The notes beneath the pieces were generated by a model, which saw nothing but the letters and a program-made list of their open reading frames with translations, was not told the origin of the DNA and did not search any database. Made by a program: the position numbers and the translations under genes. From a virus: a DNA stretch of 64,000 nt. Shown piece after piece: positions 36,258 through 62,340 of this stretch (positions are counted from its first letter, which is position 1; every line of letters begins with the position of its first letter). The stretch lies in IMG/VR virus record IMGVR_UViG_3300028422_001962, positions 9,413 through 73,412 of that record. The stretch is one strand, 5' to 3'.

Positions 36258-36325
36258 GCCCCTCTCATGGGACAGCCAATGGCGTAGAATGATAACGGGC
36301 AAAAAGCCTGAGTGGAGGAAATTTT

Positions 36326-38431: not shown

Positions 38432-38443
38432 GGCGGTGATTTT

Positions 38444-39742
38444 ATGAGAGAGATGAAAGACAGCGGCATACAATGGCTCAAAGAAATACCATCAAGCTGG
38501 AAACTTAAAAAAATTAAATACACATTGAAAGAGCGTATAGAAAAAAATAATCCTATAAGAACATCTGATATTTTGTCTCTTACTGCGAAGCAGGGTGTCA
38601 TTCCTTATGACGAAAAAGAAGGTGGCGGTAATAAGCCAAAAGAGGATGTGAGCGCATATAGATTGGCATATCCTGGTGATATAGTGATGAACAGCATGAA
38701 CATTCTTTCTGGTTCGGTGGGATTGTCGCGTTATTTCGGATGTGTAAGTCCGGTATACTATATGCTCAGACCGTATAGCAATGAAGACGACGTACGCTAT
38801 TTTAACTATATTTTTCAGACTACCGTTTTTCAAAAAAGTTTATTTGGTCTCGGCAACGGTATTCTCATAAAAGAGTCTGGCAACGGTAAGTTAAACACGA
38901 TTCGTATGCGAATACCGATGGACAAGTTCGGCAATTTAGTTATTCCAATAGCAACAGCACAAGAACAACGAATTATTGCCGACATCCTCGATAACAAATG
39001 CTCCGAAATAGACAGCCTTGTCGCGGATATCCAATCACAGATTGACACCTTGGAACAATATAAGCGGTCGGTCATCACTGAGGCGGTCACAAAAGGCTTG
39101 AACCCGGATGCCGAGATGAAAGACAGTGGGATTGAATATGTAGGAACGATACCCGCACATTGGGATAAACATCCGCTATATTGCTATTTTGTAGAGAGGA
39201 AAAACAAAAACAGTCTTGGCAAAGAAGAAAACCTGCTATCTTTGAGCTATGGTCGCGTTATACAAAAAGATATCAACTCAAATGGCGGTTTACTTCCGGA
39301 AAGTTTTAATACCTATAACATTGTTGAAACCAACGATATCATTATCCGCCCAACTGACCTGCAAAATGATAAACGCAGTCTGCGTACCGGACTGGTAAAG
39401 GAACACGGTATTATTACATCTGCATATATAGCTTTAAAAGCAAAGGCAAACCTGATTTCCGGGTATTACCACTACCTGCTTCATGCGTTCGATGTTATGA
39501 AAGTGTTTTATAACATGGGTAACGGTGTGCGTCAGGGATTGAATTTCTCTGAATTTTCTCGTTTGATGGTTTTTTACCCTCCGTATGAGGAGCAAAAAGC
39601 AATCACTTCATATCTTGACAAAAAGTGCTCTGATATAGATTCTGTGATTGCCGATAAGCAGTCACAACTTGCATCCATTGATGAATACAAAAAATCTCTC
39701 ATCTACGAGTATGTCACAGGTAAAAAGGAGGTCACCGCATGA
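38444..39742 (+). CDS. hsdS: Type I RM specificity subunit
   Basis: Repeated MKDSGI..IP..W conserved regions around two TRDs. Confidence 0.92.
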   Translation: MREMKDSGIQWLKEIPSSWKLKKIKYTLKERIEKNNPIRTSDILSLTAKQGVIPYDEKEGGGNKPKEDVSAYRLAYPGDIVMNSMNILSGSVGLSRYFGCVSPVYYMLRPYSNEDDVRYFNYIFQTTVFQKSLFGLGNGILIKESGNGKLNTIRMRIPMDKFGNLVIPIATAQEQRIIADILDNKCSEIDSLVADIQSQIDTLEQYKRSVITEAVTKGLNPDAEMKDSGIEYVGTIPAHWDKHPLYCYFVERKNKNSLGKEENLLSLSYGRVIQKDINSNGGLLPESFNTYNIVETNDIIIRPTDLQNDKRSLRTGLVKEHGIITSAYIALKAKANLISGYYHYLLHAFDVMKVFYNMGNGVRQGLNFSEFSRLMVFYPPYEEQKAITSYLDKKCSDIDSVIADKQSQLASIDEYKKSLIYEYVTGKKEVTA

Positions 39743-40140
39743 AAGTTGAATTTGCTGATTGTGAATTAGGGATTGGTGTTGCGTTATATGTCTCTGGTAC
39801 CGAATTTTTGAAAGCCGATAAGTCAAAAGATGAATTTTGTAGTCTTGCTGCAGCAACAGATGCTTTTTATAATCAACAAGGACTTGACTACCATATTGGC
39901 TCAACAGACTATGATACGGTAAAACAATGGGTCAAAGCATCCGGCGCAGTAATATTCGCTATTGAATCAGACCGTTATGGACACAGAAAGTGGTATGAAA
40001 TTTATGTGTCTACAGATAATCGCTACACCAGAATTATCTGGTCTGATGATGGCAGAGAGTATTATTCAAAAGATAGCTCAGATTTGAAAAAGACTCCGAC
40101 TAATACTACAACAAGGCAGAAAGGAGGTCGTGACGTATGA
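39739..40140 (+). CDS. Hypothetical protein between hsdS and hsdR
   Basis: 4-nt overlaps with both neighbours; AAGGAGG RBS. Confidence 0.7.
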   Translation: MKVEFADCELGIGVALYVSGTEFLKADKSKDEFCSLAAATDAFYNQQGLDYHIGSTDYDTVKQWVKASGAVIFAIESDRYGHRKWYEIYVSTDNRYTRIIWSDDGREYYSKDSSDLKKTPTNTTTRQKGGRDV

Positions 40141-43106: not shown

Positions 43107-43117
43107 GGAGGGGTATC

Positions 43118-45949: not shown

Positions 45950-47010
45950 TTAAGAACAAGAGCATTTTCATAAAAAACATATATTATATGCTTTCCTATG
46001 CCTTTACGACATTGAATCAATCTAATTTTGAAGATGTGGCGACTGAGGAATTTGAGAATATGCATAACCTCTTTGCCGCAATTCTCGCAAAAGGCATCGG
46101 CCAACAGTTGAAGCAGGGTTTGTATCGCGAGTATTTGAACAAAAGAGAAAATATGGCGGTCATGCGTGGAAAAATCGATATGTCTGGAACTATCAAAAAC
46201 AAGATTGCACGGCAGCAAATTCTTTCTTGCGATTATGATGATCTGTCGGAAAACAATCTCCTAAATCAAATCCTGAAGACCACAGTTATGATTTTGCTCC
46301 GTCTGTCAAAAGTCAATACCGAGTATAAAGACGCGCTCAAAAAAGAAATGCTATTTTTCTCAAATGTTGATACCATCGAACCGGCATCAATCCGATGGTC
46401 GTCAATTCGTTTCCAGCGAAATAATCAGACTTATCGTATGCTCGTCAGTATCTGCCAGCTTATTCTGGAAGGAATGCTTTTGACAACGGAACAAGGCGAA
46501 TACAAGCTGGCTTCTTTTGTTGACGAGCAGAGAATGTGCCGTTTATATGAGAAGTTTATATTGGAATACTACAGCAAGAAGTTTCCTGCATTGAGTGTGA
46601 GTGCATCGCAGATTCCGTGGGCCTTGGATGACGGCATTGGAACGATGCTCCCCACAATGCAGAGTGATATTACACTTTCTCACGGAAACGAAGTGCTTAT
46701 TATTGATGCAAAGTATTATTCTCATACCACGCAGGCGCAATATGATGTACATACGCTTCATTCCGGCAACCTGTATCAGATATTTACCTATGTAAAGAAC
46801 AGAGACTCCGAATTTGGAGAGAAACCACATAAGGTATCAGGAATGCTTCTGTATGCCAAAACCGATGAAACAATACAGCCAGACAATGAATATCGGATGA
46901 GTGGTAACAAAATCAGCGTAAGGACACTCGACTTGAATTGCGAGTTTCCTGTAATCGCTGCACAGCTAAATAGCATCGCTAAGAGTCATTTTGGTGAGAT
47001 CATTGCGTAA
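45946..47010 (+). CDS. mcrC: McrC restriction nuclease subunit
   Basis: IKNIYYMLSYA, SDI..IIDAKYY, NLYQIFTY; ATGA overlap with mcrB. Confidence 0.92.
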   Translation: MIKNKSIFIKNIYYMLSYAFTTLNQSNFEDVATEEFENMHNLFAAILAKGIGQQLKQGLYREYLNKRENMAVMRGKIDMSGTIKNKIARQQILSCDYDDLSENNLLNQILKTTVMILLRLSKVNTEYKDALKKEMLFFSNVDTIEPASIRWSSIRFQRNNQTYRMLVSICQLILEGMLLTTEQGEYKLASFVDEQRMCRLYEKFILEYYSKKFPALSVSASQIPWALDDGIGTMLPTMQSDITLSHGNEVLIIDAKYYSHTTQAQYDVHTLHSGNLYQIFTYVKNRDSEFGEKPHKVSGMLLYAKTDETIQPDNEYRMSGNKISVRTLDLNCEFPVIAAQLNSIAKSHFGEIIA

Positions 47011-47035
47011 TCTTTAACCCGGGAGGAGGTGCATT

Positions 47036-48070
47036 ATGCCCTTTACTATCGTCCGGCAGGACATCACAAAAATGAAAGTTGACGCCATTGTCAATGCCGC
47101 CAACACCGATCTGCAAATGGGCGGTGGGGTTTGCGGAGCTATATTCAAAGCTGCGGGAGTACTTGAACTCCAAGCCGCCTGTGATAAACTCGCTCCGATA
47201 AAGACGGGCGAGGCAATTATTACTCCAGGCTTCAATCTCTCAGCTAAGTTTGTTATCCATGCGGTGGGTCCGGTTTATCGGCATTGGAGCAAAGAGCAGA
47301 ACGAGCAGCACCTTCACGCTGCCTATACGAACTCGCTGAAAAGAGCTGTTGAAAACAAGTGTGAAAGCATAGCATTTCCTTTGATTTCAAGTGGTATCTA
47401 TGGCTATCCAAAAGACGAGGCACTTAAAGTGGCTACCTCAGCGATTCAAGATTTCCTCAAAGATTACGATCTTGAGGTGACCATTGTGGTGTTTGACAAG
47501 TCAGCATTCACCATCAGCCGCGAACTACTCGGAGAAGTCGAAAGCTACATTGATGAGCATTATATCGAAACACACCAAATAAAGCGGCGACAACTGCTTG
47601 ATATAGAGCGGGAAGCCTTTTACGAAGCTGACAAAGATGTTAGTAAATATAACAAGCCTCTTTTTGAAGAAATGCTCGCTCCGTCTGTTGGTGCGCCCGC
47701 TCCACTTGATGATTTGGTCGGCAATCTGGACGAGCCGTTCTCCGCGACACTCCTGCGGCTGATTGACGCCAAGGAAAAGACGGATGTGGAAGTTTACAAA
47801 CGTGCAAATCTTGACCGAAAGCTGTTCTCCAAGATACGGAGCAACAAAGGCTATACGCCGAGTAAGCGCACTGCCCTTGCTCTTGCCGTGGCGCTGGAAT
47901 TGTCACTCAGCGAAACTGATGACCTCTTGGAGCGGGCAGGATATGCACTTTCCCATGCAGCCAAGTTCGATGTAATCGTGGAATATTTCATCACTAACGG
48001 TAAATATGACGTTTTCGAGATAAATGAAGTGCTGTTTGAGTACGACCAGCCGCTGTTGGGAGGGTGTTGA
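47036..48070 (+). CDS. Macro domain protein with C-terminal HTH-like domain
   Basis: DITK..DAIVNAAN..GGGVCGAI, HAVGP, PLISSGIYG; YKRANLDRKLFSKIRS. Confidence 0.88.
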   Translation: MPFTIVRQDITKMKVDAIVNAANTDLQMGGGVCGAIFKAAGVLELQAACDKLAPIKTGEAIITPGFNLSAKFVIHAVGPVYRHWSKEQNEQHLHAAYTNSLKRAVENKCESIAFPLISSGIYGYPKDEALKVATSAIQDFLKDYDLEVTIVVFDKSAFTISRELLGEVESYIDEHYIETHQIKRRQLLDIEREAFYEADKDVSKYNKPLFEEMLAPSVGAPAPLDDLVGNLDEPFSATLLRLIDAKEKTDVEVYKRANLDRKLFSKIRSNKGYTPSKRTALALAVALELSLSETDDLLERAGYALSHAAKFDVIVEYFITNGKYDVFEINEVLFEYDQPLLGGC

Positions 48071-49380
48071 TTGTGGATTATTTTCTGATTATAGCATTGC
48101 CAATAATAGCACTCGCTCAAATTGCCGGAGGGGTAGTTTTTTTGTGTAAAAAAACAAATTCCAACGATAACAACGCCATAAGCACAGAACAGTCCGATTC
48201 AACTAACTCGGAGGTACTTATGCCAGTAGGATGTGTTAAGGGCTACGAAATAACTATACCAATTGAACTTCTGCCTGCGACAACCCAGATTGAGGATAAG
48301 AGCCTGTTTGAAATTACTGACCACACGGTCATTTCTCGAATTTCTGGACTAATACCTTTTACATTGCAAAATGGGACAAGGATAATGGCAAACAATGCTC
48401 TCAACCCACTAAAAGGTACAGAGTTAGTAAAAATGGATATTCCATTTTCACAACTCACGAAGTCGAAAGACATGGCAGGTGCTGCAAGAGGTTATGTTCA
48501 CGGAGGTAAGGGCGTAGCGGCACAAGCAAATTTAACTAAAGTTGACATGACCAAAGTCACAAAAGCGACTGCTGTCGCTAACGGAGTGGCGAATGTGATG
48601 AATGTTGGCTCTTTAGTCGTCGGACAGTATTATATGTCCGAGATAAGTTCCAAGTTAGAAACTATGACAAAGAGCATAGATAAAATCAGCGATTTTCAAG
48701 ACAGGGAGTTTAAGAGTCGGATATTATCGGTGATTACTCTTGTTGGAGAAATTTCTCAATTCAGCTCTGAAATAATGGAAGACGATGAGCAGCGAACACT
48801 TAAACTTTCAGCTTTAGAAAACTTAAAAGCTACTGCTACCGAACTGCTGGGGCAAGTAAACATTACAATATCTGGAATCACTCAGAAAAGCCCTAATCCT
48901 AATTATGAAGATTATCAGTACAAAGTTGGAGATCTCAAAGTTTTAGTTGAGTATCAAAACATATTAGTTGCTGTTCTCGCGGAAATTAGCAAGTTGACGT
49001 ATTTGTTAGGTAAAGGGGCAATTTCGACTGAACGCAGCTATGCCATATACAGTAAGTATTTGGAACAAGCCAAACAAACTCGAACCCTTCTTGGACAATG
49101 GCACGATAAGCAAGTTACGGCACTGCATATTGATTTAAACAAAGAGCGCATTTCCAAAGCGGGGTTTGAAGCTATTATTTCGGCTCCACTGGGCTTGATA
49201 GATGATAAATTTAAGTTTAAGGCCTTAAAACAAAGCCTTGTTTACGAGATAAGCACCCAAGCTAACCAAAGTCTCGAAAGTCCAGATGAACCAAAACGTA
49301 TCTACGATGAAGATGTAGAAATCATCATAAAGGACGGCAAATATTATTATCTACACGAATCACTGGAAACGGATGAATAA
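48064..49380 (+). CDS. Hypothetical helical protein (start uncertain)
   Basis: 438-aa ORF; SLVVGQYYMSEISSKL segment followed by long helices. Confidence 0.7.
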   Translation: MLIVDYFLIIALPIIALAQIAGGVVFLCKKTNSNDNNAISTEQSDSTNSEVLMPVGCVKGYEITIPIELLPATTQIEDKSLFEITDHTVISRISGLIPFTLQNGTRIMANNALNPLKGTELVKMDIPFSQLTKSKDMAGAARGYVHGGKGVAAQANLTKVDMTKVTKATAVANGVANVMNVGSLVVGQYYMSEISSKLETMTKSIDKISDFQDREFKSRILSVITLVGEISQFSSEIMEDDEQRTLKLSALENLKATATELLGQVNITISGITQKSPNPNYEDYQYKVGDLKVLVEYQNILVAVLAEISKLTYLLGKGAISTERSYAIYSKYLEQAKQTRTLLGQWHDKQVTALHIDLNKERISKAGFEAIISAPLGLIDDKFKFKALKQSLVYEISTQANQSLESPDEPKRIYDEDVEIIIKDGKYYYLHESLETDE

Positions 49381-49478
49381 CAATTTCGTAAGCTGTTAAT
49401 GTCGTTTCGGAAGCGACCTCTCGCCCCTCGCCAAGTAGTATTCTAAGGTTACAATAAAAATCTTAGGAGGCTACGGAA

Positions 49479-50132
49479 ATGAAAAAAGGATTAACGGAAT
49501 TAGTATTTATACTCGACAAAAGCGGATCGATGGGTGGATTAGAAACCGATACTATAGGTGGCTACAATACTATGCTTAAGAAGCAGCAGACGGTCGATGG
49601 CGAATGCCATATCACAACGGTGCTTTTTGATAACAACTACGAGCTACTCCACGACCGTATAGATATCAAGGCGGTCAGCCCAATCACCGAAAAGGAGTAC
49701 CAAGTCGGCGGATCAACTGCGCTTCTTGACGCAATTGGGAGGACGATACACAAAATCGGCAATGCCCAGCAGCACACCGCCGACGATTACCGTGCAGAAA
49801 AGGTCATGTTCGTCATCATCACCGACGGCGAGGAGAACAGCAGCCGCGAGTACAGCTCGGACAAAGTCAAGGCGCAGATTGAGCGGCAGAAGGCAAAATA
49901 CGGTTGGGAGTTTATCTTCCTTGGCGCGAATATTGACGCTGTGCAGACAGCTTCGCGCTTCGGCATAGCACCCGACCGCGCTCAGAATTATCACGCTGAC
50001 AGCGAGGGCGTGGAACTCAACTTCCGTGTAATGAGCGAGGCTGTCGCCACCTTCCGAGAATGCGCCGCCATGCCGGAGGGTTGGAATGACGAGATACAGA
50101 AGGACTATAAACGACGCGGCAGCAAGCGTTAA
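49479..50132 (+). CDS. von Willebrand factor A domain protein
   Basis: MIDAS DKSGS, TALLDA, ITDGEEN. Confidence 0.9.
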   Translation: MKKGLTELVFILDKSGSMGGLETDTIGGYNTMLKKQQTVDGECHITTVLFDNNYELLHDRIDIKAVSPITEKEYQVGGSTALLDAIGRTIHKIGNAQQHTADDYRAEKVMFVIITDGEENSSREYSSDKVKAQIERQKAKYGWEFIFLGANIDAVQTASRFGIAPDRAQNYHADSEGVELNFRVMSEAVATFRECAAMPEGWNDEIQKDYKRRGSKR

Positions 50133-50169
50133 TAAGAGATGATCGTAGCCTACTGCGTAAGGAGAAAAT

Positions 50170-51930
50170 ATGAGTATTATAAAACATAATTTATTGCCCA
50201 AGCAAAAGTCGCGTAAAAACCATCTTGAAGTTGAGGTAGATTTATATCCTTACGCATCAGAGCTATATGACGAATTGAATTCTTTGGGAATAATTCAAAG
50301 AATGAAAGAAATACCCCAGTTGGGAGTTATCAAGGTTCCGAAAAAGCTTGAAAAAAGCAGATACGATTATGTAATGCTGCAATTGTACTTGCATCAGCTT
50401 ATTAAAAATAAATTACAGAGTCAGTTAAGACTGACATATAACAATCCGGTAAAATCTTATGAATTCAGGCCTGATTACCATTACAATACAAAAGAAGACA
50501 AGCCAACTATCGGTGATGTCCTTCAGCTACTTACAATCGTGTATAACATCGGCCATTTTTATAATACATTTACATCCTCACGAGCAGTCACAATGATGGC
50601 CACCGAAGATGATACATTTAAGAAAATGATTGTATCTGCTTCGACTGACAATAAATATGCACCTGTTGTAAATAAGCTACTTACAGACAATGATTATCAA
50701 CACTTTCACCTGATAAATTCTATTTTGATTTTGGAGCATTGCGACCAAGCTAAACAATCAGTAATACTGGCAAAGGAAATATTATATGCATACATAAACG
50801 AGAAGAGTTTACCCACTGAGAGTAAACTCGCATATGCATTTTCAGTTTTTAGAAATGTCCGCACCGTATCCTATATGGCGTATGATTTACAAATTGCCAA
50901 CACACCGCTTACTATAGATTTGTGTAATCAAGACGCCGTTCTGGTTTTGCTCAGGGAATTATTGTCAGAATATAACAATAGCAGGTCTTCATCCAGACTT
51001 ATCGAATCAGTTAGCAAATTGCTGGATGATACGGTGTATAACGAAAACTCAAATGCTATCTGCTATTATAAAATATCAAGGAAAATCGTTTCATTCCTTC
51101 AAAGGAAAGAGTACTTCGAGGAAAGAAAATATTTCGATGATTTTTTTCTCAATAGAACGAGTTTATTAAATTGTTCCTATTCACACAATAGAGATTACGT
51201 ACAAGAGGCAATATTAAAGATTACTTTTCAACGAAGTGAAAGACATATATCTGAGGATACTTTTTTCACACTTGAACGCATTAATAATACTCGTGTTGGG
51301 TATTATGATCGACATACTGGTGAGCAAACGATACTGGTTTCTCTTAAAAAACATTGCGCTTCAAAGACTGCTGCTGCTCTTCATGTATTAAGAACCGTAG
51401 TAGGTGCTCTGAGAAAAATTGAAGGTATCGCGCCAAATGATATCCGTTTTTTGCTATGCGTTAAATTCTTCTTGTTCTATTTATTTAACGAAAATCCTGT
51501 TTTGATTAAGCCAACAATCGATGAACACACCTGCGTTATATGTACAAGAGGAAAAAACAGTCGAATAACTGAAGTCAAAAAACTTCTCAATGATGGGTGT
51601 GGAAATCCAGATCAAAATCATGAAGCGGCATTTATGGTTAATTGCTTAGAAGAAGATAAGCTGAATGATACTACAATATGTGTCCCCGCAAGTATAGTAG
51701 TTTATCAAAAAGATGCCGTTGGCCGAAAACTCTGTGAATTTGATGGAATCGTTATACGTCCTATGCGAAAGCAGAAACAAGTATTATTTCTTGAAGCTAA
51801 AAACACTACAGATAAGCCTTCACTTGCAAAAAATTGCTTAATCGAAAAATTAGATAAATTGTCATTTTCATATTCAGCAACTGATATCCAGACAGTTAAT
51901 TATGATGCAGAATTAGAAGTTACAATCTAA
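50170..51930 (+). CDS. Degenerate HD-domain protein fused to a C-terminal PD-(D/E)XK nuclease
   Basis: QRMKEIPQLG..SRYDY, YNIGH, VSYMAYD match HD motifs without the metal ligands; C-terminal EFDG..LEAK. Confidence 0.65.
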   Translation: MSIIKHNLLPKQKSRKNHLEVEVDLYPYASELYDELNSLGIIQRMKEIPQLGVIKVPKKLEKSRYDYVMLQLYLHQLIKNKLQSQLRLTYNNPVKSYEFRPDYHYNTKEDKPTIGDVLQLLTIVYNIGHFYNTFTSSRAVTMMATEDDTFKKMIVSASTDNKYAPVVNKLLTDNDYQHFHLINSILILEHCDQAKQSVILAKEILYAYINEKSLPTESKLAYAFSVFRNVRTVSYMAYDLQIANTPLTIDLCNQDAVLVLLRELLSEYNNSRSSSRLIESVSKLLDDTVYNENSNAICYYKISRKIVSFLQRKEYFEERKYFDDFFLNRTSLLNCSYSHNRDYVQEAILKITFQRSERHISEDTFFTLERINNTRVGYYDRHTGEQTILVSLKKHCASKTAAALHVLRTVVGALRKIEGIAPNDIRFLLCVKFFLFYLFNENPVLIKPTIDEHTCVICTRGKNSRITEVKKLLNDGCGNPDQNHEAAFMVNCLEEDKLNDTTICVPASIVVYQKDAVGRKLCEFDGIVIRPMRKQKQVLFLEAKNTTDKPSLAKNCLIEKLDKLSFSYSATDIQTVNYDAELEVTI

Positions 51931-51958
51931 AAATATGCTTTATTATATTGAGAACCCT

Positions 51959-52012
51959 CGCTAACGATTTATACTTGCGCTAACGAAACCTAAACCTGCG
52001 CTAACGATTTAT
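51959..52012. repeat. Three short direct repeats CGCTAACGA
   Basis: Copies at 51959, 51978 and 51999. Confidence 0.7.
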
Positions 52013-52081
52013 CCGGCAAATGAACACTGTATCAAAATTATCAGCCTTTGCCAACGGAGGCGGCGAGACTCTAACCCTATT

Positions 52082-52274
52082 ATTGACTTGTTTCCGAGAA
52101 CGGATTAAAACAAAATAAAAGTGTGGATATATTTCCACGAACGGAGATTATCCCAAAAACCATCATCGACCTATTCCCGAGAACGATAAATCAGCAAACC
52201 ACATACCAGACATCAATATGATGCTATCGTTCCATGTGGAGAGTGTTGTATTGATAACAAGAAAAGATAGGTAA
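52082..52274 (+). mobile_element. Element junction 2: att-like repeats plus displaced 3' tail of a rumA/rlmD-type gene
   Basis: IDLFPRT/VDIFPRT/IDLFPRT-like 21-mers, the conserved end sequence, then HVESVVLITRKDR* (52233-52274). Confidence 0.8.
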
Positions 52275-52498
52275 ATGTTTAGAAAGCCTTGAAATAAAGG
52301 GGTTTCGAGGATAGGGTAGAAACTCTGGCTCTCGGATTTTTTTGCTGCCACCTCCTCCATCTCACCAAGCCATAGGAAAGTTAAGTAGCAAATATAATAT
52401 ATATTTATATAGCAAAGAGAAAAATATATATTATACATTGAAATGTTTATACAAATTTGATATACTTAATTCAAACCAATAACAGGGGAGTAAGGACG

Positions 52499-53467
52499 AT
52501 GGAAAAGAACAGCAGGCTTTTATGCCTTCTGCAGTTATTGCAAAGAGAAACTGATGAGGAGCATATGCTGACAACTTCGCAGCTCATAGCAAAACTTGCT
52601 GAGCTTGATATTTCATCCCATCGTGAAACAATAGCCTCGGATATTAAGCTGCTCCAAAATGCCGGTTATGATATTATCTGTAATAAAAGCACACAAAATA
52701 AATACTTTCTTGCAAGCCGTGAATTTGAACCAGTGGAACTTAAAATGCTTGCCGATGCGGTTAATGCGGCACAGTTTATTTCAGCAGATAAATCTAAACA
52801 GCTCATAGATAAGCTTTTTTCATCTGTAAGTAAATATCTAGAGGAACAGCTTAAATGTTCTGTAAATTCTGCGAACCTCAACAAGCATAACGGAAATTCA
52901 TGCATATATTGTGCAGACCTAATAAACACCGCAATTGCTCAGGGTGTTAAGATAAAATTTCAATATTATGAGTATACGGCAAAAAAAGAAAAAGTGCTGA
53001 AGCATAATGGCTTCACATATACAGTTAGTCCATATGCGACAGTATGGAATGATGACCGCTATTATCTTGTCGGATATTGTGAAAAGCATAAAGATATTAC
53101 TGTTTTCAGAATTGACAGAATAACGAATATAGCGCTCACTAAGAATATCTCAAAGCCTTGTCCAGAAGATTTCTGCCTCAAGGCTTTCCTTTCACAGACA
53201 TTTAAAATGTTTCATGGTGAGCTTTCTGAAGTGAATCTTAAATGTCATAGTAAGCATATGAAGGCAATTGTAGATAAGTTCGGGGATAATGTTAAAACAG
53301 AAATAATTGATAAAAACTATTTTTCTGCAAAGGTTAACGTTGAACTCAGTCCAACGTTTTATAGCTGGATTTTTCAGTTCAAGGGAGAACTTGGCATACA
53401 ATCACCACAAAAAGCAATTGACGAATTTGTGCAAATGATAGAAAGCGTTAAACAGGTGTCGGAATAA
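52499..53467 (+). CDS. WYL domain transcriptional regulator (wHTH-WYL-WCX)
   Basis: N-terminal HTH; VSPY..DRYYLVG..FRIDRI. Confidence 0.9.
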   Translation: MEKNSRLLCLLQLLQRETDEEHMLTTSQLIAKLAELDISSHRETIASDIKLLQNAGYDIICNKSTQNKYFLASREFEPVELKMLADAVNAAQFISADKSKQLIDKLFSSVSKYLEEQLKCSVNSANLNKHNGNSCIYCADLINTAIAQGVKIKFQYYEYTAKKEKVLKHNGFTYTVSPYATVWNDDRYYLVGYCEKHKDITVFRIDRITNIALTKNISKPCPEDFCLKAFLSQTFKMFHGELSEVNLKCHSKHMKAIVDKFGDNVKTEIIDKNYFSAKVNVELSPTFYSWIFQFKGELGIQSPQKAIDEFVQMIESVKQVSE

Positions 53468-55809: not shown

Positions 55810-56186
55810 AAAAAGAACCCTTTCAAAAGTCCCACGAAGTGAGACTATGGTAACTTTAAAACTGAATAACAGCATCAGAAATACGTTAATCTCACAGCCG
55901 GTATAAAATCTCGGCAGCCACCGAAGAATTACGCTTGCGATAAATTTTTCTTCAGCCTTTGAATAGCTTTCAAAGTCGGCGATGAAATGTGAGAGGATAA
56001 TGATACTTCCGCCCAGCCACAGAATCAACCAATGGGGGCGGCTCTGGGAGAACCTCAGAGAGATGAGAAGTCTATGAGATAAAAAAGCTATTTATCGTTT
56101 CTGATGTTCCGCCGTAACGGATGTTGAGGACAAATATTACGGTGGCAAAACGAAATTATCAGGCAGGCTCTGTCCTGCCTGTTTTT
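55810..56186 (+). ncRNA. Candidate large structured non-coding RNA (boundaries approximate)
   Basis: No credible ORF; several long-range complementary segments; ends in terminator CAGGCAGG-N6-CCTGCCTG-TTTTT. Confidence 0.55.
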
Positions 56187-56212: not shown

Positions 56213-56386
56213 ATGGGTAATAAAAATACAAATTTAAATCACAACGGCATCACTGTTAATGCTGAGTCAGTAAAAATTCCTACAAATCATAAGTGCTATA
56301 AATGCATCTGGGCAAACACAGAATCCGGGCGGATATTTTGTTTCAGAAAACCATGCGTGAGGGAGGCAAAGAAAAATGGTAATTAA
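56213..56386 (+). CDS. Small Cys-rich protein (57 aa)
   Basis: MGNKNTNL..HKCYKCIWANTESGRIFCFRKPCVREAKKNGN; RBS AGAGGA; overlaps the mazF-like start. Confidence 0.6.
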   Translation: MGNKNTNLNHNGITVNAESVKIPTNHKCYKCIWANTESGRIFCFRKPCVREAKKNGN

Positions 56387-56717
56387 ACGCGGAGATATAT
56401 TTTATGCAGATCTAAACCCTGTTTTCGGTTCAGAGCAAGGCGGATATCGTCCTGTTCTTGTAATTCAAAATGACATAGGCAATCAGCACAGTCCTACAGT
56501 TATTGTTGTTCCGATTTCATCAGTCGGCAAGAAAGCCTATCTGCCTGTGCATATAAATATTTCAGATACCAAACTTTTGCCGAAGGACTCAGTTATTCTT
56601 CTGGAACAGATACGAACACTGGATAAAAAGAGGCTAAGTGAATATGTTGGTTCATTTGAATGCGAAATGATGCAGAGGATTGATAGGGCTATAAAAATAA
56701 GTGTGGGGGTAACGTGA
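56376..56717 (+). CDS. mazF: PemK/MazF family endoribonuclease
   Basis: RGDIFYADLNP..GSEQGGYRPVLVIQNDIGN..SPTVIV, LEQIRTLDK. Confidence 0.9.
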   Translation: MVIKRGDIFYADLNPVFGSEQGGYRPVLVIQNDIGNQHSPTVIVVPISSVGKKAYLPVHINISDTKLLPKDSVILLEQIRTLDKKRLSEYVGSFECEMMQRIDRAIKISVGVT

Positions 56718-56828
56718 ACTGCTTTCACGTATAAAAATTGATTTTTTGTACTTAAGTACAAAATTTTGCTTACACAAAATCATCAATTTTTCAATAGGCA
56801 AGAATTCATAAAATGAAGGGAGATATTT

Positions 56829-56990
56829 ATGATTAGATATGGACAGGCGGAATATGCAATATTTATCATGAAACAGGTTACCGAAAAGCTGAGAAATCAG
56901 AATATTATCACAGAAGAGCAGTACAGACAACTTACAGCTAAAAATCAGGATGATTGTTATAATCAGTTCTGCACAGCGAATGCCGCTTAA
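56829..56990 (+). CDS. Small SHOCT-like protein (53 aa)
   Basis: MIRYGQAEY..KLRNQNIITEEQYRQL; AAGGGAG RBS; precedes the recombinase cluster. Confidence 0.55.
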   Translation: MIRYGQAEYAIFIMKQVTEKLRNQNIITEEQYRQLTAKNQDDCYNQFCTANAA

Positions 56991-57060
56991 TTTTGTTGGC
57001 TTTGGTGATAGCTATTCAATAAAAACTATGGTAATGTATGTAGTAAAAAAAGTGGGGTGA

Positions 57061-57169
57061 AAGTTTGAAAGATAAATCTTCCAAACCACGAGTTTTGTGC
57101 CTTTGAAGAATTAATTCTTCAATTTCCAATGCACCCTTCGGGTTCATCGGAAACCGTCACAAAACATCG
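57061..57169. repeat. 109-nt multi-hairpin element, copy 1
   Basis: 9 substitutions relative to 60598-60706 by manual alignment; directly before the RBS of recombinase 1. Confidence 0.9.
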
Positions 57170-57187
57170 CAAATAGTTAGAAAGGGA

Positions 57188-58735
57188 ATGGTTATAAACA
57201 TGAGCAATGTTACAGTTATTCAGCCAACAATATCAGATGAAAAAACAAAGATCCGCGTTGCTGCATATTGTCGCGTAAGTTCTGATTCAGCTGACCAGAT
57301 AAATTCATTTATGGCACAGGTCACATTCTATGAAAATTTTCTTTCAGACAGCACAACACAACAATTTGTCGGAATTTATGCTGATGAGGGTATTACCGGC
57401 ACAAGAATTGACAAGCGTGATGAATTTAAAAGGCTTATGCATGACTGCCGCAGAGGAAAAATCGATAGGATTATTACAAAATCCATATCCCGTTTTTCAA
57501 GAAATACAAAAGATTGCCTGACTTCAGTGCGAGAGCTCAAGGAGTTGGGTATTTCAGTTTTGTTCGAAAAAGAAGACATTGATACAGCAAATATGACAGA
57601 TGAAATGATGATAACTCTTATGGGCGGTCTTGCACAGGAAGAATCGGTGTCAATTTCTAATAATGTTCGGTGGGGAATACGTAAACAAATGCAGAATGGA
57701 ACATTTATAGCGTCCTCTGTTCCATATGGGTATAGACTCATTGATAAAAAGCTTATTGTTGTAAAATCAGAGGCGGAAGTTGTTAGAAAGATATTTCAGA
57801 TGTACCTTGAAGGCAATGGCATAAATACAATTGCAGCTGAGTTACGCTCATTAGGCTTGGAAAGAGAAAATTCTGAATGGGGTAAAAATGCGGTAAGATA
57901 TATTCTTTCAAATGAAAAATATATCGGTGAATCAACATTTCAGAAATGGTATATGACATCAACCTTGCCTTATAGGTGCAAAGAAAACAAGGGCGAACTC
58001 GACAAATATAACGTAACGGATCACCATGAGCGGATTATTTCAAAAGAAGTTTTTCAATCGGTGCAAAAACTTATTAAAAAGAGGGGAGAAGTAAAAGTCG
58101 GAAATACATATTCTCAGTGCCCACTTTCGGGTAAAATATATTGCGGAGAATGTGGTACATTGTTTAAATTCAAGCAACGCAGAACCTATGGATGCTGGGT
58201 GTGCAGACGACATGATGAAAGTGCAGAGAACTGCTCTGCAAAACAAATTTCGGAATTGGATGTTTATAACACTTTCGTATGCCTTTACAATAAGCTGAAA
58301 CAGAATTACAAGCAAATTCTTCTGCCACTGCGGTCACAGCTACAGGAGCTTAACCTGAAGAAATTCAGCGGAAACAATAATGTGCTTGATATTCATAAGG
58401 AAATCGCTCAGTTTAAAGAACAGACTCATGTGCTTGCAAGGCTTAAAACAAAAGGATTTCTTGATGATGTAAAATATTACGAACAGACAAATGAGATTAC
58501 TTCAAAGATAAATAAGCTTCAGCAAAAACTTCGTCAGCTGACTCAAAGCGATGATGAGGACGATATTATTGAACAGATTTCATTGCTGATATCAATTCTT
58601 GAAAAAGATAATAATATGCTTACGGAATTTGATGATAATATCTTTGAAAGCGTGGTTGAGAAAATTATTGTCAAATCGCAGACAGAACTTGAATTTCAGC
58701 TTATCGGCGGAATGAAATTTAAAGAAAAATGTTGA
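57188..58735 (+). CDS. Large serine recombinase 1 (start may be 57200)
   Basis: AAYCRVSS, KSISRFSRN, PYGY recombinase domain, CGECG zinc ribbon, coiled coil. Confidence 0.93.
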   Translation: MVINMSNVTVIQPTISDEKTKIRVAAYCRVSSDSADQINSFMAQVTFYENFLSDSTTQQFVGIYADEGITGTRIDKRDEFKRLMHDCRRGKIDRIITKSISRFSRNTKDCLTSVRELKELGISVLFEKEDIDTANMTDEMMITLMGGLAQEESVSISNNVRWGIRKQMQNGTFIASSVPYGYRLIDKKLIVVKSEAEVVRKIFQMYLEGNGINTIAAELRSLGLERENSEWGKNAVRYILSNEKYIGESTFQKWYMTSTLPYRCKENKGELDKYNVTDHHERIISKEVFQSVQKLIKKRGEVKVGNTYSQCPLSGKIYCGECGTLFKFKQRRTYGCWVCRRHDESAENCSAKQISELDVYNTFVCLYNKLKQNYKQILLPLRSQLQELNLKKFSGNNNVLDIHKEIAQFKEQTHVLARLKTKGFLDDVKYYEQTNEITSKINKLQQKLRQLTQSDDEDDIIEQISLLISILEKDNNMLTEFDDNIFESVVEKIIVKSQTELEFQLIGGMKFKEKC

Positions 58736-58780
58736 GAAATCGTGTTGATTGTGGTATAATAAATGAAAGGTGGTGCTGAT

Positions 58781-59614
58781 ATGGCAAAGTTTAAAGACAC
58801 AATTTCTGCAAATGGTAATGAAATAGCTATTATTTCAGATGGAATTGATAATGACTATATCTCTCTTACGGATATAGCAAGATATAAAAGTGCTGAACCA
58901 AAGGATGTAATAAAAAATTGGATGCGTTCAAAATCCACAATTGAATTTTTGGGGTTATGGGAAAAACTCAATAATCCTAATTTTAAAGGGGTCGAATTCG
59001 ACTCCTTTAAAAATGAAGCAGGTGCAAATGCTTTTACTATGTCTCCACAGAAATGGATCGAAAGCACAGATGCTATTGGGGTAATTTCCAAGTCTGGCAG
59101 AAATGGCGGAACTTTTGCTCATAAAGATATCGCATTTGAATTTGCTTCATGGGTATCAGCTGAATTTAAGCTGTATATTATCAAGGACTATCAAAGGCTG
59201 AAAGCTGATGAAAGCAACCGTTTGTCTTTGGATTGGAATGTTAAGCGAACGCTTGCCAAAATAAATTATAAAATACATACAGATGCAATTAAAGAGAACA
59301 TTATTCCAAAGTGTGTTACTGAACAGCAGAAAAAATATTCATATGCATCGGAAGCGGATATATTGAATGTCGCATTGTTTGGCATGACAGCGACAGAATG
59401 GAAAAAGTCAAATAGTGAACTAAAGGGTAATATCCGTGATTATGCAACTGTTCAGCAACTTGTAGTGCTGACTAATCTGGAAAGCTTGAATGCTGAATAC
59501 ATACGTCAATGTTTATCGCCAAATGAAAGACTTATGAAACTCAATGAAGCGGCAATTAATCAAATGAAGTCGCTGTCGGGTAATTTTAGCGTAAACAGAC
59601 TTGAGAGTAAATAG
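58781..59614 (+). CDS. KilA-N domain DNA-binding protein
   Basis: DYISLTDIAR, NWMR, GRNGGTFAHKDIAFEFASW; own TATAAT upstream and terminator at ~59617-59657. Confidence 0.88.
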   Translation: MAKFKDTISANGNEIAIISDGIDNDYISLTDIARYKSAEPKDVIKNWMRSKSTIEFLGLWEKLNNPNFKGVEFDSFKNEAGANAFTMSPQKWIESTDAIGVISKSGRNGGTFAHKDIAFEFASWVSAEFKLYIIKDYQRLKADESNRLSLDWNVKRTLAKINYKIHTDAIKENIIPKCVTEQQKKYSYASEADILNVALFGMTATEWKKSNSELKGNIRDYATVQQLVVLTNLESLNAEYIRQCLSPNERLMKLNEAAINQMKSLSGNFSVNRLESK

Positions 59615-59724
59615 AGAAAAATGTGCTTTGTGAACAATTCACAAGGCGCATTTTTTGTGACTTTAGTAATAGATATTCCGTACGGAATGTGGTATTGTTG
59701 TAATGAAAATTAGGAGGCGATAAA

Positions 59725-60612
59725 ATGAAGAAAAACAGAATCCTTCCCTTCGGCTACTGCATGCAAAACGGGGAAATCATTCCACAGCCTAAAGAAAGTG
59801 AAGCTGTCAAGCAGATTTTTATTTCTTACATAAACGGCGAATCTTTAAGCAATATCGCAGATATGATGACAGCTAATAATATTTCTTATCATGAATGCTC
59901 TGAAAAGTGGAACAAGAATATGATTAATCGTATACTTGAAAATGAAAAATATCTCGGTAATGATGAATACTTACCGATTATCTCACAGGAAGACTTTACA
60001 CTTGCCAATGCCAAAAAACAAAAAAAATCCACTAAAGTATGTGTTATTTCTGATGAACTGAATATAATCCGTGAAAGAACTTTTTGCAAGGAATGCGGAA
60101 AACGCTTAATTCGTATTGGAGGTAATAACCGTTCTGAAAAATGGGACTGCAGAAATGCAGAATGTTCAAGGCTGGGATTTCGATTAACTGACAATATACT
60201 TATTGGATCAGTGCTTAATGTACTAAATGCTGTAATTGCAAATCCAAAGCTACTAATTGCTCCACAGACTGAAAATACATATCAGCCGGATATGACGATA
60301 ACACGTCAGATAAATGAAATAGACAGGCTAATGGAAAATCCGGGTGTAAATTATGAAAGTGCAAAAGCTGAAATTGTAAAGCTTGCAGAGTTAAAATATA
60401 ACTGCTGTAATTATGATGACAGTCCACAGAAAACAGAACAGTTACTGTCTTTGATTTCTGAAAGAGAACAACTTAATACGCTTGATATTGACTTATATAA
60501 ATCCACAGTTTCACGGATTTATATAAGTCATTTTAATTTTATAGAGGTTGAATTTATAAACGGAAAAGTAATAAAAACTATTTTTGAAAGTGGTAATAAG
60601 TTTGAAAGATAA
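59725..60612 (+). CDS. Serine-recombinase family protein lacking the catalytic domain
   Basis: Starts at PFGY; ILENEKYLG; CKECG..C..C ribbon; no YxRVS motif. Confidence 0.85.
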   Translation: MKKNRILPFGYCMQNGEIIPQPKESEAVKQIFISYINGESLSNIADMMTANNISYHECSEKWNKNMINRILENEKYLGNDEYLPIISQEDFTLANAKKQKKSTKVCVISDELNIIRERTFCKECGKRLIRIGGNNRSEKWDCRNAECSRLGFRLTDNILIGSVLNVLNAVIANPKLLIAPQTENTYQPDMTITRQINEIDRLMENPGVNYESAKAEIVKLAELKYNCCNYDDSPQKTEQLLSLISEREQLNTLDIDLYKSTVSRIYISHFNFIEVEFINGKVIKTIFESGNKFER

Positions 60613-60706
60613 ATCTTTCAAACTACGAGTTTTATGCCTTTGAGGAATTAATTCCTCAATTTCCGATGTACCCTTTGGGTTCATCAGAAACCGTCACAAA
60701 ACATCG
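60598..60706. repeat. 109-nt multi-hairpin element, copy 2
   Basis: Overlaps the stop codon of recombinase 2 and abuts the RBS of recombinase 3. Confidence 0.9.
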
Positions 60707-60714
60707 AGAAAGGA

Positions 60715-62340
60715 ATGGTTATATTAATGACAGCTCAGAATGTTAAAATAATTCCCGCAACAACGAAAACAGCAGAAGGCAGAAATAAGTACCATCAGCT
60801 TAGTGTTGCTGCTTACTGCCGAGTTTCTACCGAACAGGAAGAACAGCAAAACAGCTACCAAGTTCAGATTGCATATTACACTGATAAAATCAATTCAAAT
60901 AAGGAATGGTCACTTGCCGGAATTTTTGCTGATGAGGGCATTTCGGGAACACAGGCAAAGAAACGTCCAGAATTTCTTCGAATGATTAGGCTGTGTGAAA
61001 AAGGGAAAATTGACCTTGTGCTTTCAAAATCAATTTCAAGATTTGCACGAAATACTGTTGACTGTCTTGAATATGTAAGAAGGCTCAAAGAAAAAGGTAT
61101 TGGGGTTATTTTTGAAAAGGAAAATATCAATACTCTCACTATGACCAGTGAATTTATGATTGCTTTATACGGAAGCTTTGCACAGGCAGAAAGCGAATCA
61201 ATCAGCAAAAATGTTACCTGGGGCAAGCAAAAAGCTTATGCTGATGGGAAAGTTGCTTTTCAGTATAAACATTTACTGGGTTATAAAAAAGGCTCTGACG
61301 GAAATCCGGAAATTGTTCCCGAAGAAGCTGAAACTGTTAAAATGATATTTGAAATGTTCCTTGACGGATTGAGCTATGTGGATATTTGTGACAGGCTGAA
61401 TGCTCTTGAAAGAAAAACTGCCCATGGCAATACTGAATGGCACAGGGACTGTATCGGTAATATTCTAAAAAATGAAAAGTACGTTGGCGATGCGTTATTG
61501 CAAAAAACTTTCACAGTTGATTGCATAACAAAAAAGGTACAGAAAAATAACGGGGAACGTCCTATGTACCTAGTTTCAAATCATCATGAGGCAATAATTG
61601 ACCGAGATATGTTCAATCGTGTTCAGCAAGAGCTTGCAAGGCGAGTTTCTAAGCGTAAAACTTCTGATAAAACTATAACCCAGCAAGGCAAATATTCAAG
61701 CAAATACGCACTTTCCGAACTTCTTATATGTGGTAACTGCGGTTCACCATATCGCAGAGCAGTATGGACTTCAAGAGGGAAACGGCAAGTTGTATGGCGG
61801 TGCATAAGCCGACTTGAACACGGGAAAAAATACTGTACTCTATCACCGACAATGCACGAGGAAAAGCTTCAGACTGCGATTTTACAAGCGGTAAATGAAT
61901 ACCTTGGCTGTCGTGATGAAATTGCTAAAATACTGAAAGCCAATATTGGTACTGTACTTGAATGTCAGGGGCAAGAGAAAATATTGTTTCTTGAAAAACG
62001 GCTTGGTGAACTTGATAATGCAAGAAATGATATAATTGCACTGATTGCATCTGGTGGCTGTGATGAAGAAAAAATGGACACGGAATTTGCAAAACTTTAT
62101 ACAGAGGAACATGCTATAAATGAGCAGTTATTAGAACTGAAGGGAAAAATCAAATTATCGGCAGATACTAAAAATAAGATAGATACTGCAATGAATATGA
62201 TTGAGAATGAAAAATTCGAACTTGAGTTTTTCGATAATGTCATTATCCGCAAGCTGATTGAATGTATAAAAGTCCTTAACAAAACGGAGATCCTTATAAT
62301 CTTCAAGGGCGGAGTTGAGGTTAAGGCAGAGATTGAATAA
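60715..62340 (+). CDS. Large serine recombinase 3 (start may be 60727)
   Basis: [35 protein letters not shown], coiled coil. Confidence 0.93.
   Translation: MVILMTAQNVKIIPATTKTAEGRNKYHQLSVAAYCRVSTEQEEQQNSYQVQIAYYTDKINSNKEWSLAGIFADEGISGTQAKKRPEFLRMIRLCEKGKIDLVLSKSISRFARNTVDCLEYVRRLKEKGIGVIFEKENINTLTMTSEFMIALYGSFAQAESESISKNVTWGKQKAYADGKVAFQYKHLLGYKKGSDGNPEIVPEEAETVKMIFEMFLDGLSYVDICDRLNALERKTAHGNTEWHRDCIGNILKNEKYVGDALLQKTFTVDCITKKVQKNNGERPMYLVSNHHEAIIDRDMFNRVQQELARRVSKRKTSDKTITQQGKYSSKYALSELLICGNCGSPYRRAVWTSRGKRQVVWRCISRLEHGKKYCTLSPTMHEEKLQTAILQAVNEYLGCRDEIAKILKANIGTVLECQGQEKILFLEKRLGELDNARNDIIALIASGGCDEEKMDTEFAKLYTEEHAINEQLLELKGKIKLSADTKNKIDTAMNMIENEKFELEFFDNVIIRKLIECIKVLNKTEILIIFKGGVEVKAEIE

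Follow-up and report, generated by a model that had tools for sequence, protein, structure and literature searches.

Among the closest described systems are the REP2 (CREN) repeats of Neisseria and the inverted-repeat (IR) repeats of Borrelia plasmids, which in the account of Delihas (2011, PMC3184786), as far as it describes them, are 120 to 150 bp long, occur in tens of copies, have no terminal inverted repeats and form stem-loops from internal inverted repeats near the 5' end; REP2 is also reported there to carry a promoter. The same source, in its general description, characterizes bacterial MITEs and REPs as small, non-coding, multi-copy and hairpin-forming sequences that are polymorphic, amplified and co-transcribed with their neighbours (PMC3184786). 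The repeat of Clostridia and their phages that we describe here resembles REP2, as outlined in that account, in that its internal inverted repeats form stem-loops, it lacks terminal inverted repeats and it sits immediately 5' of ORFs, at starts provided with a ribosome-binding site (RBS) and an ATG. It differs in being modular, with 0 to 3 nested hairpins, in occurring in Clostridia and phages, in ending 2 nt before the native ATG and in having no promoter-like site in either of the two copies analysed in detail. MITEs and REP/REPIN elements, of which Correia, ERIC, RUP, BOX and the RAYT-mobilised REPs are examples, share with our repeat the properties generally ascribed to them, since it is small, non-coding, present in many copies, hairpin-forming and polymorphic between relatives. 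Unlike them, it shows no terminal inverted repeats, no evident target duplication and no partner insertion sequence among 12 Y1-transposase loci, and it keeps a fixed orientation and a fixed distance to the start codon.

Two further systems are relevant. Elements of the IS200/IS605 type carry hairpins at or near their ends, have no inverted termini, cause no duplication and insert in one orientation 3' of a short word that resembles their own 3' end. Our repeat is similar in having AA or ATAA on both sides, but it opens directly with its left hairpin, has a weakly defined target word, and matched the ends of none of 12 Y1 transposase loci. The SAS/ESAS sequences of cluster K mycobacteriophages are conserved sequences just 5' of many phage gene starts with an upstream inverted repeat; to our knowledge these motifs are short and restricted to a single cluster of phages. 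In contrast, the Clostridia repeat is an insertion of 45 to 240 nt with presence/absence polymorphism, and is found in bacteria too. Neither window copy, nor copies from eight further loci, matched any Rfam 15 family at E values up to 1, and literature searches returned no paper on it, so the family is apparently undescribed.

The window, the whole 64,000-nt stretch of viral DNA that was analysed, contains two copies of the repeat, each located between the old Shine-Dalgarno (SD) sequence with its spacer and the ATG of a large serine recombinase gene. The features are as follows.

57049-57062, + strand: native SD-like run of recombinase 1 with its A-rich spacer, both displaced; matches the orthologue layout in L230 and L231
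57063-57197, + strand: repeat copy 1 (hairpin 1, three-way junction, linker, own SD and tail); covariance model 66.6 bits, E 1.5e-12
57063-57086, no strand assigned: hairpin 1 of copy 1, in which the + strand has a single A.C mismatch
57089-57169, no strand assigned: three-way junction of copy 1, an outer stem around two hairpins
57180-57197, + strand: element-borne SD and tail of copy 1 (GAAAGGGAATGGTTATAA); in-frame ATG at 57188
57200-58735, + strand: large serine recombinase 1; ORF open from 57188, orthologue N-termini align from the ATG at 57200
59725-60612, + strand: Recombinase-domain-only (non-catalytic) ORF; last four sense codons and stop inside copy 2
60586-60599, + strand: native SD of recombinase 2 (GAAAGTGG) with its spacer TAATAA, both displaced; aligns with orthologues L151 and L152 and lies within the empty-site contig
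60600-60724, + strand: repeat copy 2; covariance model 67.4 bits, E 1e-12
60600-60623, no strand assigned: hairpin 1 of copy 2; loop TAA at 60610-60612
60626-60706, no strand assigned: three-way junction of copy 2, an outer stem around two hairpins
60708-60724, + strand: element-borne SD and tail of copy 2 (GAAAGGAATGGTTATAT); in-frame ATG at 60715
60727-62340, + strand: large serine recombinase 2; ORF open from 60715

A preliminary description of this DNA had reported a 109-nt element before two divergent catalytic recombinase genes, with nine differences between the copies, and the repeat search and a scripted count agreed with it. The segments 57061-57169 and 60598-60706 form a two-copy direct repeat family (92% identical, spacing 3537), all nine differences are transitions, and the downstream proteins, both with Resolvase, Recombinase and Zn_ribbon_recom domains, are 31% identical (173 of 552). 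The flanks were also as described, namely AAAGTGG on the 5' side of both copies and GAAAGG(G)AATGGTTATA followed by ATG on the 3' side. From the alignments and the layout, the native starts are probably the ATGs at 57200 for recombinase 1 and 60727 for recombinase 2. The stop codon of the Recombinase-domain-only ORF is the TAA in the hairpin-1 loop of copy 2. Hairpin 1 was not matched in any of 100 shuffles, which excludes chance. No third copy was found in the window using the hairpin pattern with up to three mismatches, the tail pattern or the covariance model, and the rest of the 3.5-Mb assembly held no further copy. Among 86 middle regions from the family, those of the two window copies were each other's only relatives (91% over 80 nt), their next-best matches being 16-nt words only. 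As part of the mobile-repeat reading set out below, the two are probably sister copies of one private subfamily, recently acquired by both catalytic recombinase genes.

Both copies have as their minimum-free-energy (MFE) structure the fold proposed at the outset, in which hairpin 1 is followed by an outer stem around two hairpins, and the compensatory A-T/G-C change was located at 57107/60644 (A/G) with 57118/60655 (T/C). Covariation across the family supports this structure: 90.0% of the cells in the covariance-model alignment pair, where shuffles give 71.2% and slid controls 34-58%, and both-sided changes occur at 30 of the 35 pairs of the model. A hand-given structure and the covariance model were used here; MAFFT with RNAalifold on 18 copies recovered hairpin 1 alone because the variable hairpins misalign. 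The strong covariation of the inner hairpins shows selection on structure, which is equally compatible with a functional RNA. The + strands of copies 1 and 2 fold with -34.7 and -36.0 kcal/mol (z -2.1 and -3.7) and the - strands with -45.8 and -44.6 kcal/mol (z -5.4 and -6.1). With the folds read by eye, at least five of the seven one-sided changes between the window copies give A.C on the + strand, equivalent to G.U on the - strand, and the remainder lie in loops or internal loops. Together with the roughly 10 kcal/mol better fold of the - strand, these A.C-type changes hint at a strand-specific role.

Comparison across genomes revealed a modular unit: a 24-nt hairpin 1, a variable and optional outer stem with 0 to 3 hairpins, and a tail of consensus GAAAGGAATGGTCATAA, consisting of an own SD and a fixed spacer, followed by two bases and the native ATG. 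The ends, GTTTG at the start of the hairpin and GGTCATAA at the other side, are not complementary, confirming that terminal inverted repeats are absent, and a consensus scan found no sigma-70-like promoter site inside either window copy. The orientation relative to the downstream gene was always sense. Among the matches listed, the tail was followed by a start codon in 92 of 117 non-redundant instances, with a gap of 2 nt in 79 of the 92; under stricter rules, again among the matches listed, the gap was 2 nt in 59 of 83 and never 5 or 8 nt. The gene at locus L031 has no second ATG, and its start must be that of the element. Where units are arranged head to tail, the tail is followed by two bases and then by the TTG of hairpin 1. 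In one carrier genome (G044), 17 tails lacked a good hairpin 1; judged by eye, eight had a decayed hairpin, four a middle without a hairpin and five only linker and tail, and all 17 had an ATG at the tail or within two bases of it. Old copies shed their hairpins and retain the tail, which would act as a working RBS. We rejected the idea that the hairpin-1 TTG begins a leader peptide or an in-frame coding insertion, since the phase was uniform over the three frames (28/31/33), the frame was open in only 9 of 92 copies, and the putative upstream ORF stopped inside the element in 57 of 92.

Hairpin 1 was present in at least 119 stretches of Clostridia genome contigs and in seven viral contigs; as the loci were gathered with that exact pattern, part of its identity between genomes follows from the search itself. 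The carriers are mostly labelled Oscillospiraceae, Ruminococcaceae or just Clostridia, and include the cultured Acetanaerobacterium elongatum (locus L090). The preliminary description had suggested a genome-wide count of copies, and five carrier genomes contained many scattered ones, with 16-46 strand-hits each (about 8-25 sites), where a reversed control gave none, and 18-44 tails each. One genome (G041) had at least nine further copies that were 88-92% identical, which points to amplification within the genome; among 30 of its relatives, none matched the element part of the query. Carriage is patchy: hairpin 1 occurred in one of 200 other genomes sampled from the class of one carrier, in none of 400 from the class of the window genome and in none of 39 genomes of its family. 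A BLAST search of the element against phage and plasmid collections gave no match, nor did the 3'-stem 20-mer in viral contigs, and scans of a metagenome contig collection for the copy 2 left flank and for a window-specific junction 26-mer were negative. The proteins encoded downstream (n = 85) are unrelated. They hit 111 Pfam families, the commonest among the matches listed being ABC_tran with four members, and the genes include many housekeeping and phage genes.

Orthologous loci provided a second line of comparison. The orthologues of recombinase 2 (71-75% amino acid identity) and recombinase 1 (58%) have a plain SD, spacer and ATG: L230 and L231 show an SD, seven bases and the ATG where copy 1 would be, and L151 and L152 show GAAAGGAAG, a spacer and the ATG. 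Hairpin 1 was found at none of 82 loci of recombinase relatives, eight relatives lacked the element at the uvrC start, and among 80 tail-protein loci only the query's own carried it. In a related metagenome contig from run X3, 60599 is followed after a single letter by 60726; this contig represents the empty site of copy 2 and sets its exact boundaries (60600-60725 skipped). Those of copy 1 were set by analogy with copy 2 and with the head-to-tail copies. For one phage carrier gene the best relative was 61% identical, too distant for exact boundaries. Since the element stands before many unrelated genes and is absent from the recombinase orthologues, it is not a recombinase-specific RNA or a guide of the bridge-RNA kind, and neither a cis-regulatory RNA dedicated to the catalytic subunits nor a recombinase-associated RNA, both suggested in the preliminary description, is supported. 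Unrelated contexts and element-free orthologues had been named there as the marks of a generic repeat, and both were observed. Its third suggestion, a REP/MITE-like element inserting at ribosome-binding sites, held up in a refined form in which terminal inverted repeats are absent and the element brings its own SD.

The target site is less sharply defined. The X3 empty site shows no clear target duplication. Most copies have AA on both flanks, extending in some to ATAA, and no copy-specific agreement was visible by eye. The left flanks were slightly more similar to their own tails (5.40) than to other tails (5.14; permutation p 0.008), a difference driven by about four copies, and a long target duplication of the ribosome-binding site, to which these few copies weakly point, was set aside. 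A joint between the two direct copies of the window, as expected for a recombination product, was absent from the contigs of four runs. A short DNA target would by itself hardly explain a landing point exactly 2 nt 5' of the ATG.

Candidate mobilising enzymes were sought in the carriers. Four of the five carrier genomes encode Y1 transposases, none of the 12 Y1_Tnp loci had a hairpin or tail nearby, and the fifth genome (G044, which may be incomplete) gave no Y1 match; a partner of the IS200/IS605 or REP/REPIN-RAYT type was rejected on these grounds. An Ssn-like GIY-YIG partner was likewise rejected, the matches being one uvrC-sized ORF per genome (612-658 aa) and, in a single genome of the five, three ORFs of 227-299 aa. 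No autonomous element sharing the ends was found among the Y1 and GIY-YIG candidates.

Several other explanations were considered. The repeat might be a cis-acting translational leader on the + strand mRNA, with hairpin 1 and the junction bound by a shared factor or acting as an SD-free/SD-sequestering switch, and with a regulon that includes both recombinases. Its fixed position and orientation relative to start codons and its covarying structure would suit such a role, as would the CUUUC/GAAAG words, present in every hairpin and by sequence able to pair with the SD (RNAalifold pairs CCUUU with AAAGG), and the exact inverted complement of the tail found internally in one subfamily. We nevertheless consider it unlikely: the downstream genes have no common function, orthologues and sister species lack the element, its carriage between species is patchy, the old copies lose what would be the regulatory hairpins and keep the tail, and no Rfam family matches. 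Furthermore, G.U (G.T) is barely favoured over A.C (108 versus 75) at the paired columns of the model-fitted alignment, unlike typical RNA.

This same excess, small as it is, leans against a reading in which the - strand is the functional one, either as an antisense RNA over the carriers' ribosome-binding sites or as a folded single strand recognised in transposition. The - strand folds better in both window copies and in 62 of the 86 middle regions, its MFE folds hold 187 G.U pairs compared with 86 on the + strand, and a strand-neutral mismatch test counted 13 A.C against 5 G.T on the + strand. That test fell short of significance (p 0.096), and its copies are non-independent; in addition, no promoter-like site was found on the - strand inside or beside either copy and no contig of RNA run X18 covered either one, and we regard this reading as improbable. 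It is very improbable that the neighbouring serine recombinases bind or cross over at the palindromes. Hairpin 1 does resemble an att site, being an inverted repeat of 12 bp centred on AA, and lies beside both recombinase genes, but the same palindrome precedes more than 100 unrelated genes in genomes, is missing from the 82 related recombinase loci, and has an empty-site relative.

With a probability of about 0.8, we interpret the repeat as a non-autonomous, gene-less, modular mobile element that replaces ribosome-binding sites in Clostridia and in their phages and islands. A unit would land in sense orientation two bases ahead of a gene's ATG, 3' of the gene's own SD and spacer, and the gene would then be translated from the RBS of the element. 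The hairpins would serve propagation of the element and not control of the recombinases, probably as folded single-stranded DNA moved by a putative enzyme acting in trans, and the family would spread in this way within some Clostridia genomes, their phages and islands. Target choice by mimicry is a more speculative idea that we hold only tentatively: the layout at head-to-tail junctions is that of a native SD, spacer, two bases and ATG, which makes it conceivable that the element recognises ribosome-binding sites as such, by homology or through a structure-specific single-strand enzyme, and swaps in a standard start region.

The mobile-repeat reading removes a tempting but wrong lead, namely that large serine recombinases have here an RNA that guides or regulates them. 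In its place is a family that would rewrite translation start regions; expression of the carrier genes would depend on the sequence of the repeat. Gene callers will misplace starts because of the four extra in-frame codons, and upstream ORFs acquire new ends from stop codons in the hairpins. Why units land at exactly this distance from the ATG, two bases, is a clear mechanistic question on target choice. If mimicry proves to be true, it would allow the element to land safely within operons and phage genomes, and in a bolder version the hairpins may in addition tune the translation of all carrier genes, those of both recombinase subunits among them.

A single long direct repeat is present in the window, with 109-nt copies at 57061-57169 and 60598-60706, spaced by 3537 nt. 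The copies are 92% identical and, by script count, all 9 differences are transitions. Both precede genes for large serine recombinases with Resolvase, Recombinase and Zn_ribbon_recom domains, and the two recombinases are 31% identical to each other. Each copy folds into a 24-nt hairpin (hairpin 1) followed by an outer stem around two hairpins, and a compensatory A-T to G-C change (57107/57118 versus 60644/60655) is found in the first inner hairpin. AAAGTGG precedes both copies, and on the 3' side each is followed by GAAAGG(G)AATGGTTATA, 2-3 bases and ATG. A KilA-N gene and a Recombinase-domain-only gene are situated between the recombinases; neither is preceded by a copy in pattern and covariance-model scans of the window, and no further copies were found in the assembly containing it. 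The preliminary description was thus accurate as to the copies and their divergent genes, the fold with its compensatory change, the flanking motifs and the absence before the non-catalytic (Recombinase-domain-only) gene.

Its proposals of a cis-regulatory RNA dedicated to the catalytic subunits, or of a recombinase-associated RNA, are refuted by the distribution of the element. The hairpin-1 word was found in 7 IMG/VR contigs and, among species-representative genomes, in at least 119 stretches; 85 downstream proteins matched 111 Pfam families, the largest with no more than 4 members. Downstream genes include those for formate-tetrahydrofolate ligase, NrdD, GcpE, IlvD, AsnA, PlsX, exonuclease VII, alanine dehydrogenase, Lgt and phage tail proteins. 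Conversely, the closest relatives of recombinase 2 (71-75% amino acid identity) and recombinase 1 (58%) have a plain Shine-Dalgarno (SD) sequence, approximately 7 bases and ATG, and hairpin 1 was found at none of 82 recombinase-relative loci at any position. The carriers among the matches listed are, as labelled, nearly all Clostridia (Oscillospiraceae, Ruminococcaceae, Acutalibacteraceae and some Lachnospiraceae), with one isolate, Acetanaerobacterium elongatum. One locus (contig JAVBUB010000221.1) belongs to a MAG labelled Paludibacteraceae (Bacteroidota), the other labelled carriers being Clostridia or Bacillota; this label may reflect mis-binning or transfer.

The copies are built to one plan. 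An SD-like run rich in purines and a short A-rich stretch lead into hairpin 1, followed by an outer stem around 0-3 hairpins of highly variable sequence (the middle region), then GAAAGGAA, at times with an extra hairpin, then the tail ATGGTCATAA, 2 bases and a start codon that opens a long ORF. Tail and start codon were present in 92 of 117 non-redundant instances, with a gap of 2 nt in 79 of the 92. When the tail was allowed no more than 2 mismatches and the ORF had to reach 70 aa, the gap was exactly 2 nt in 59 of 83 and 5 or 8 nt in none.

The element behaves like a mobile insertion. In five carrier genomes there were approximately 8-25 hairpin-1 sites per genome (0 for the reversed control) and 18-44 tails. 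Of 200 other genomes sampled in the class of one carrier, 1 had hairpin 1; none of 400 sampled in the class of the window genome had it, nor did any of 39 genomes of the latter's family. One carrier, G041, has at least 9 further copies that are 88-92% identical to the copy preceding uvrC; the element part of that uvrC query was matched in none of 30 G041 relatives, and eight relatives lacked the element at uvrC. Among homologous phage tail-protein loci, it was present in 1 of 80, the query's own contig. Some subfamilies are common to different species at 92-100% identity, and among 86 middle regions the sole relative of each window copy is the other. Scattered copies and empty orthologous sites support the remaining earlier proposal, a REP/MITE-like repeat that inserts at ribosome-binding sites.

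An empty site was also found for copy 2. A 1549-nt contig of wastewater run X3, approximately 89-91% identical to the window, covers 60051-60599 and, after a single letter, resumes at 60726, so that 126 nt are missing. This junction is the empty site. It places the insert at 60600 to approximately 60724, with TAATAA on its left and two bases and ATG on its right. Over 56800-58731, copy 1 included, another X3 contig matches the window without a difference. The X3 contigs over 59405-61000 are approximately 10% divergent and without copy 2, and at 59710-59724 the window sequence is replaced by 119 letters. This pattern reflects a mosaic relative of the island, or else two related islands.

In recombinase-2 orthologues the GAAAG of the SD lies 11 nt before ATG, and the window has this distance between the same GAAAG and the TTG of hairpin 1. 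The kept spacing indicates that the native SD and spacer stayed in place and that the element now parts them from the ATG. Alignment of the orthologue N-termini begins at the second ATG (57200, 60727), and both recombinase ORFs open from an in-frame tail ATG 12 nt upstream of it; at locus L031 the second ATG is absent and the element's ATG is the sole possible gene start. Two of the three reading frames are closed by stop codons in hairpin 1, and the Recombinase-domain-only ORF now ends at a TAA in the hairpin-1 loop. In-frame coding insertion was rejected, the phase from TTG to gene start being 28/31/33 across the three frames. Inspected by eye, 17 tails without a good hairpin 1 in carrier genome G044 comprised 8 with a decayed hairpin, 4 without a hairpin 1 but with the middle kept and 5 with only linker and tail, and all had ATG at the tail or within two bases. 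Such decay would be expected if selection keeps the tail as a ribosome-binding site and the remainder is dispensable to the host. One subfamily in carrier G042 (loci such as L034, L061, L076, L086, L091) precedes ordinary genes, for example a sugar kinase; approximately 46 nt upstream of the tail it has the tail's exact reverse complement, and in the predicted fold SD and ATG are hidden within a helix of 17-19 bp.

MAFFT with RNAalifold did not resolve the variable part, and a covariance model was built from 11 copies with the structure supplied by hand. It gave 124 matches in the window and 99 loci, those in the window being the two copies only. The fold covaries: standard pairs filled 90.0% of cells versus 71.2% in shuffles (none of 500 reached 90.0%) and 34-58% with slid partners, 30 of 35 pairs had changes on both sides, and the covariation score was 0.307 versus 0.096 shuffled and at most 0.054 slid, all figures being biased towards the model to which the alignment was fitted. 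Inner hairpins of different subfamilies have no common sequence, and pairing is still kept. The - strand folds better than the + strand in both window copies and in 62 of 86 middle regions, with 187 G.U pairs in its minimum free energy folds versus 86. Two tallies speak against a clear strand signal. In a strand-neutral one, single mismatches within Watson-Crick helices came to A.C 13, G.T 5 and other 28 on the + strand (p 0.096); the model-fitted alignment gave Watson-Crick 3061, G.T 108, A.C 75 and other 279. In a working RNA, G.U is normally far above A.C. The near balance of G.T and A.C fits palindromes selected as DNA, or copies in decay. No Rfam family matched the window copies or those in further loci, and neither window copy contained promoter-like or terminator-like sites.

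Neither terminal inverted repeats nor a clear target duplication were found. In 84-86 of 92 copies hairpin 1 is preceded by AA, the tail likewise ends in AA, and an SD-like G peak is seen 6-7 nt left of hairpin 1. Head-to-tail copies adjoin directly, tail to hairpin. One tandem pair (L144:1868-2110) has a variant second hairpin 1 with a compensatory change on both arms. Left flank and own tail have private variants in common in a few copies (L074, L140, L070, L085), and the overall excess similarity between them is small. Element ends were not present at Y1 transposase loci in carrier genomes, and four of the five carriers had no small GIY-YIG gene. We favor single-strand, hairpin-dependent transposition by an enzyme that would act in trans; alternatively, the element may be copied between start regions, guided by homology.

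The island around the copies also encodes a sigma-70 region-4 protein and an amidoligase, together with the following features.

33981-53467, upstream of the recombinases: defence island with an AAA_13 protein, type I restriction HsdM/HsdS/HsdR, an AAA_5+EVE protein with McrBC component, a Macro-domain protein and a WYL-domain regulator
48064-49380 and 50170-51930, in the defence island: two large ORFs without Pfam match
55997-56077, + strand: pemK RNA motif (RF02913, 60 bits, E 6e-9)
56376-56717, approximately 300 nt downstream of the pemK RNA motif: PemK/MazF-type toxin gene

A weaker dinG RNA match, below its own threshold, overlaps the pemK RNA motif. Over the KilA-N gene (58915-59337) contig depth sums of the sequencing runs rise sharply, up to 67 in RNA run X18, with many loose ends; this domain segment is probably common to other abundant elements. 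Because the host's lineage otherwise lacks the repeat, a Clostridia lineage carrying the family is the probable source of the island or of its repeat copies, or else the contig was mis-binned.

The nearest published kind are the Neisseria REP2 (CREN) and Borrelia IR repeats, which are 120-150 bp long, have internal stem-loops and no inverted termini, carry a ribosome-binding site and ATG directly before ORFs, and move by a mechanism described there as unknown (PMC3184786). The Clostridia element has other hosts and another sequence, its nested hairpins are modular, and it lacks a promoter. Literature searches turned up no published description of the Clostridia repeat family. The element is an apparently undescribed family among the known small mobile start-site repeats.
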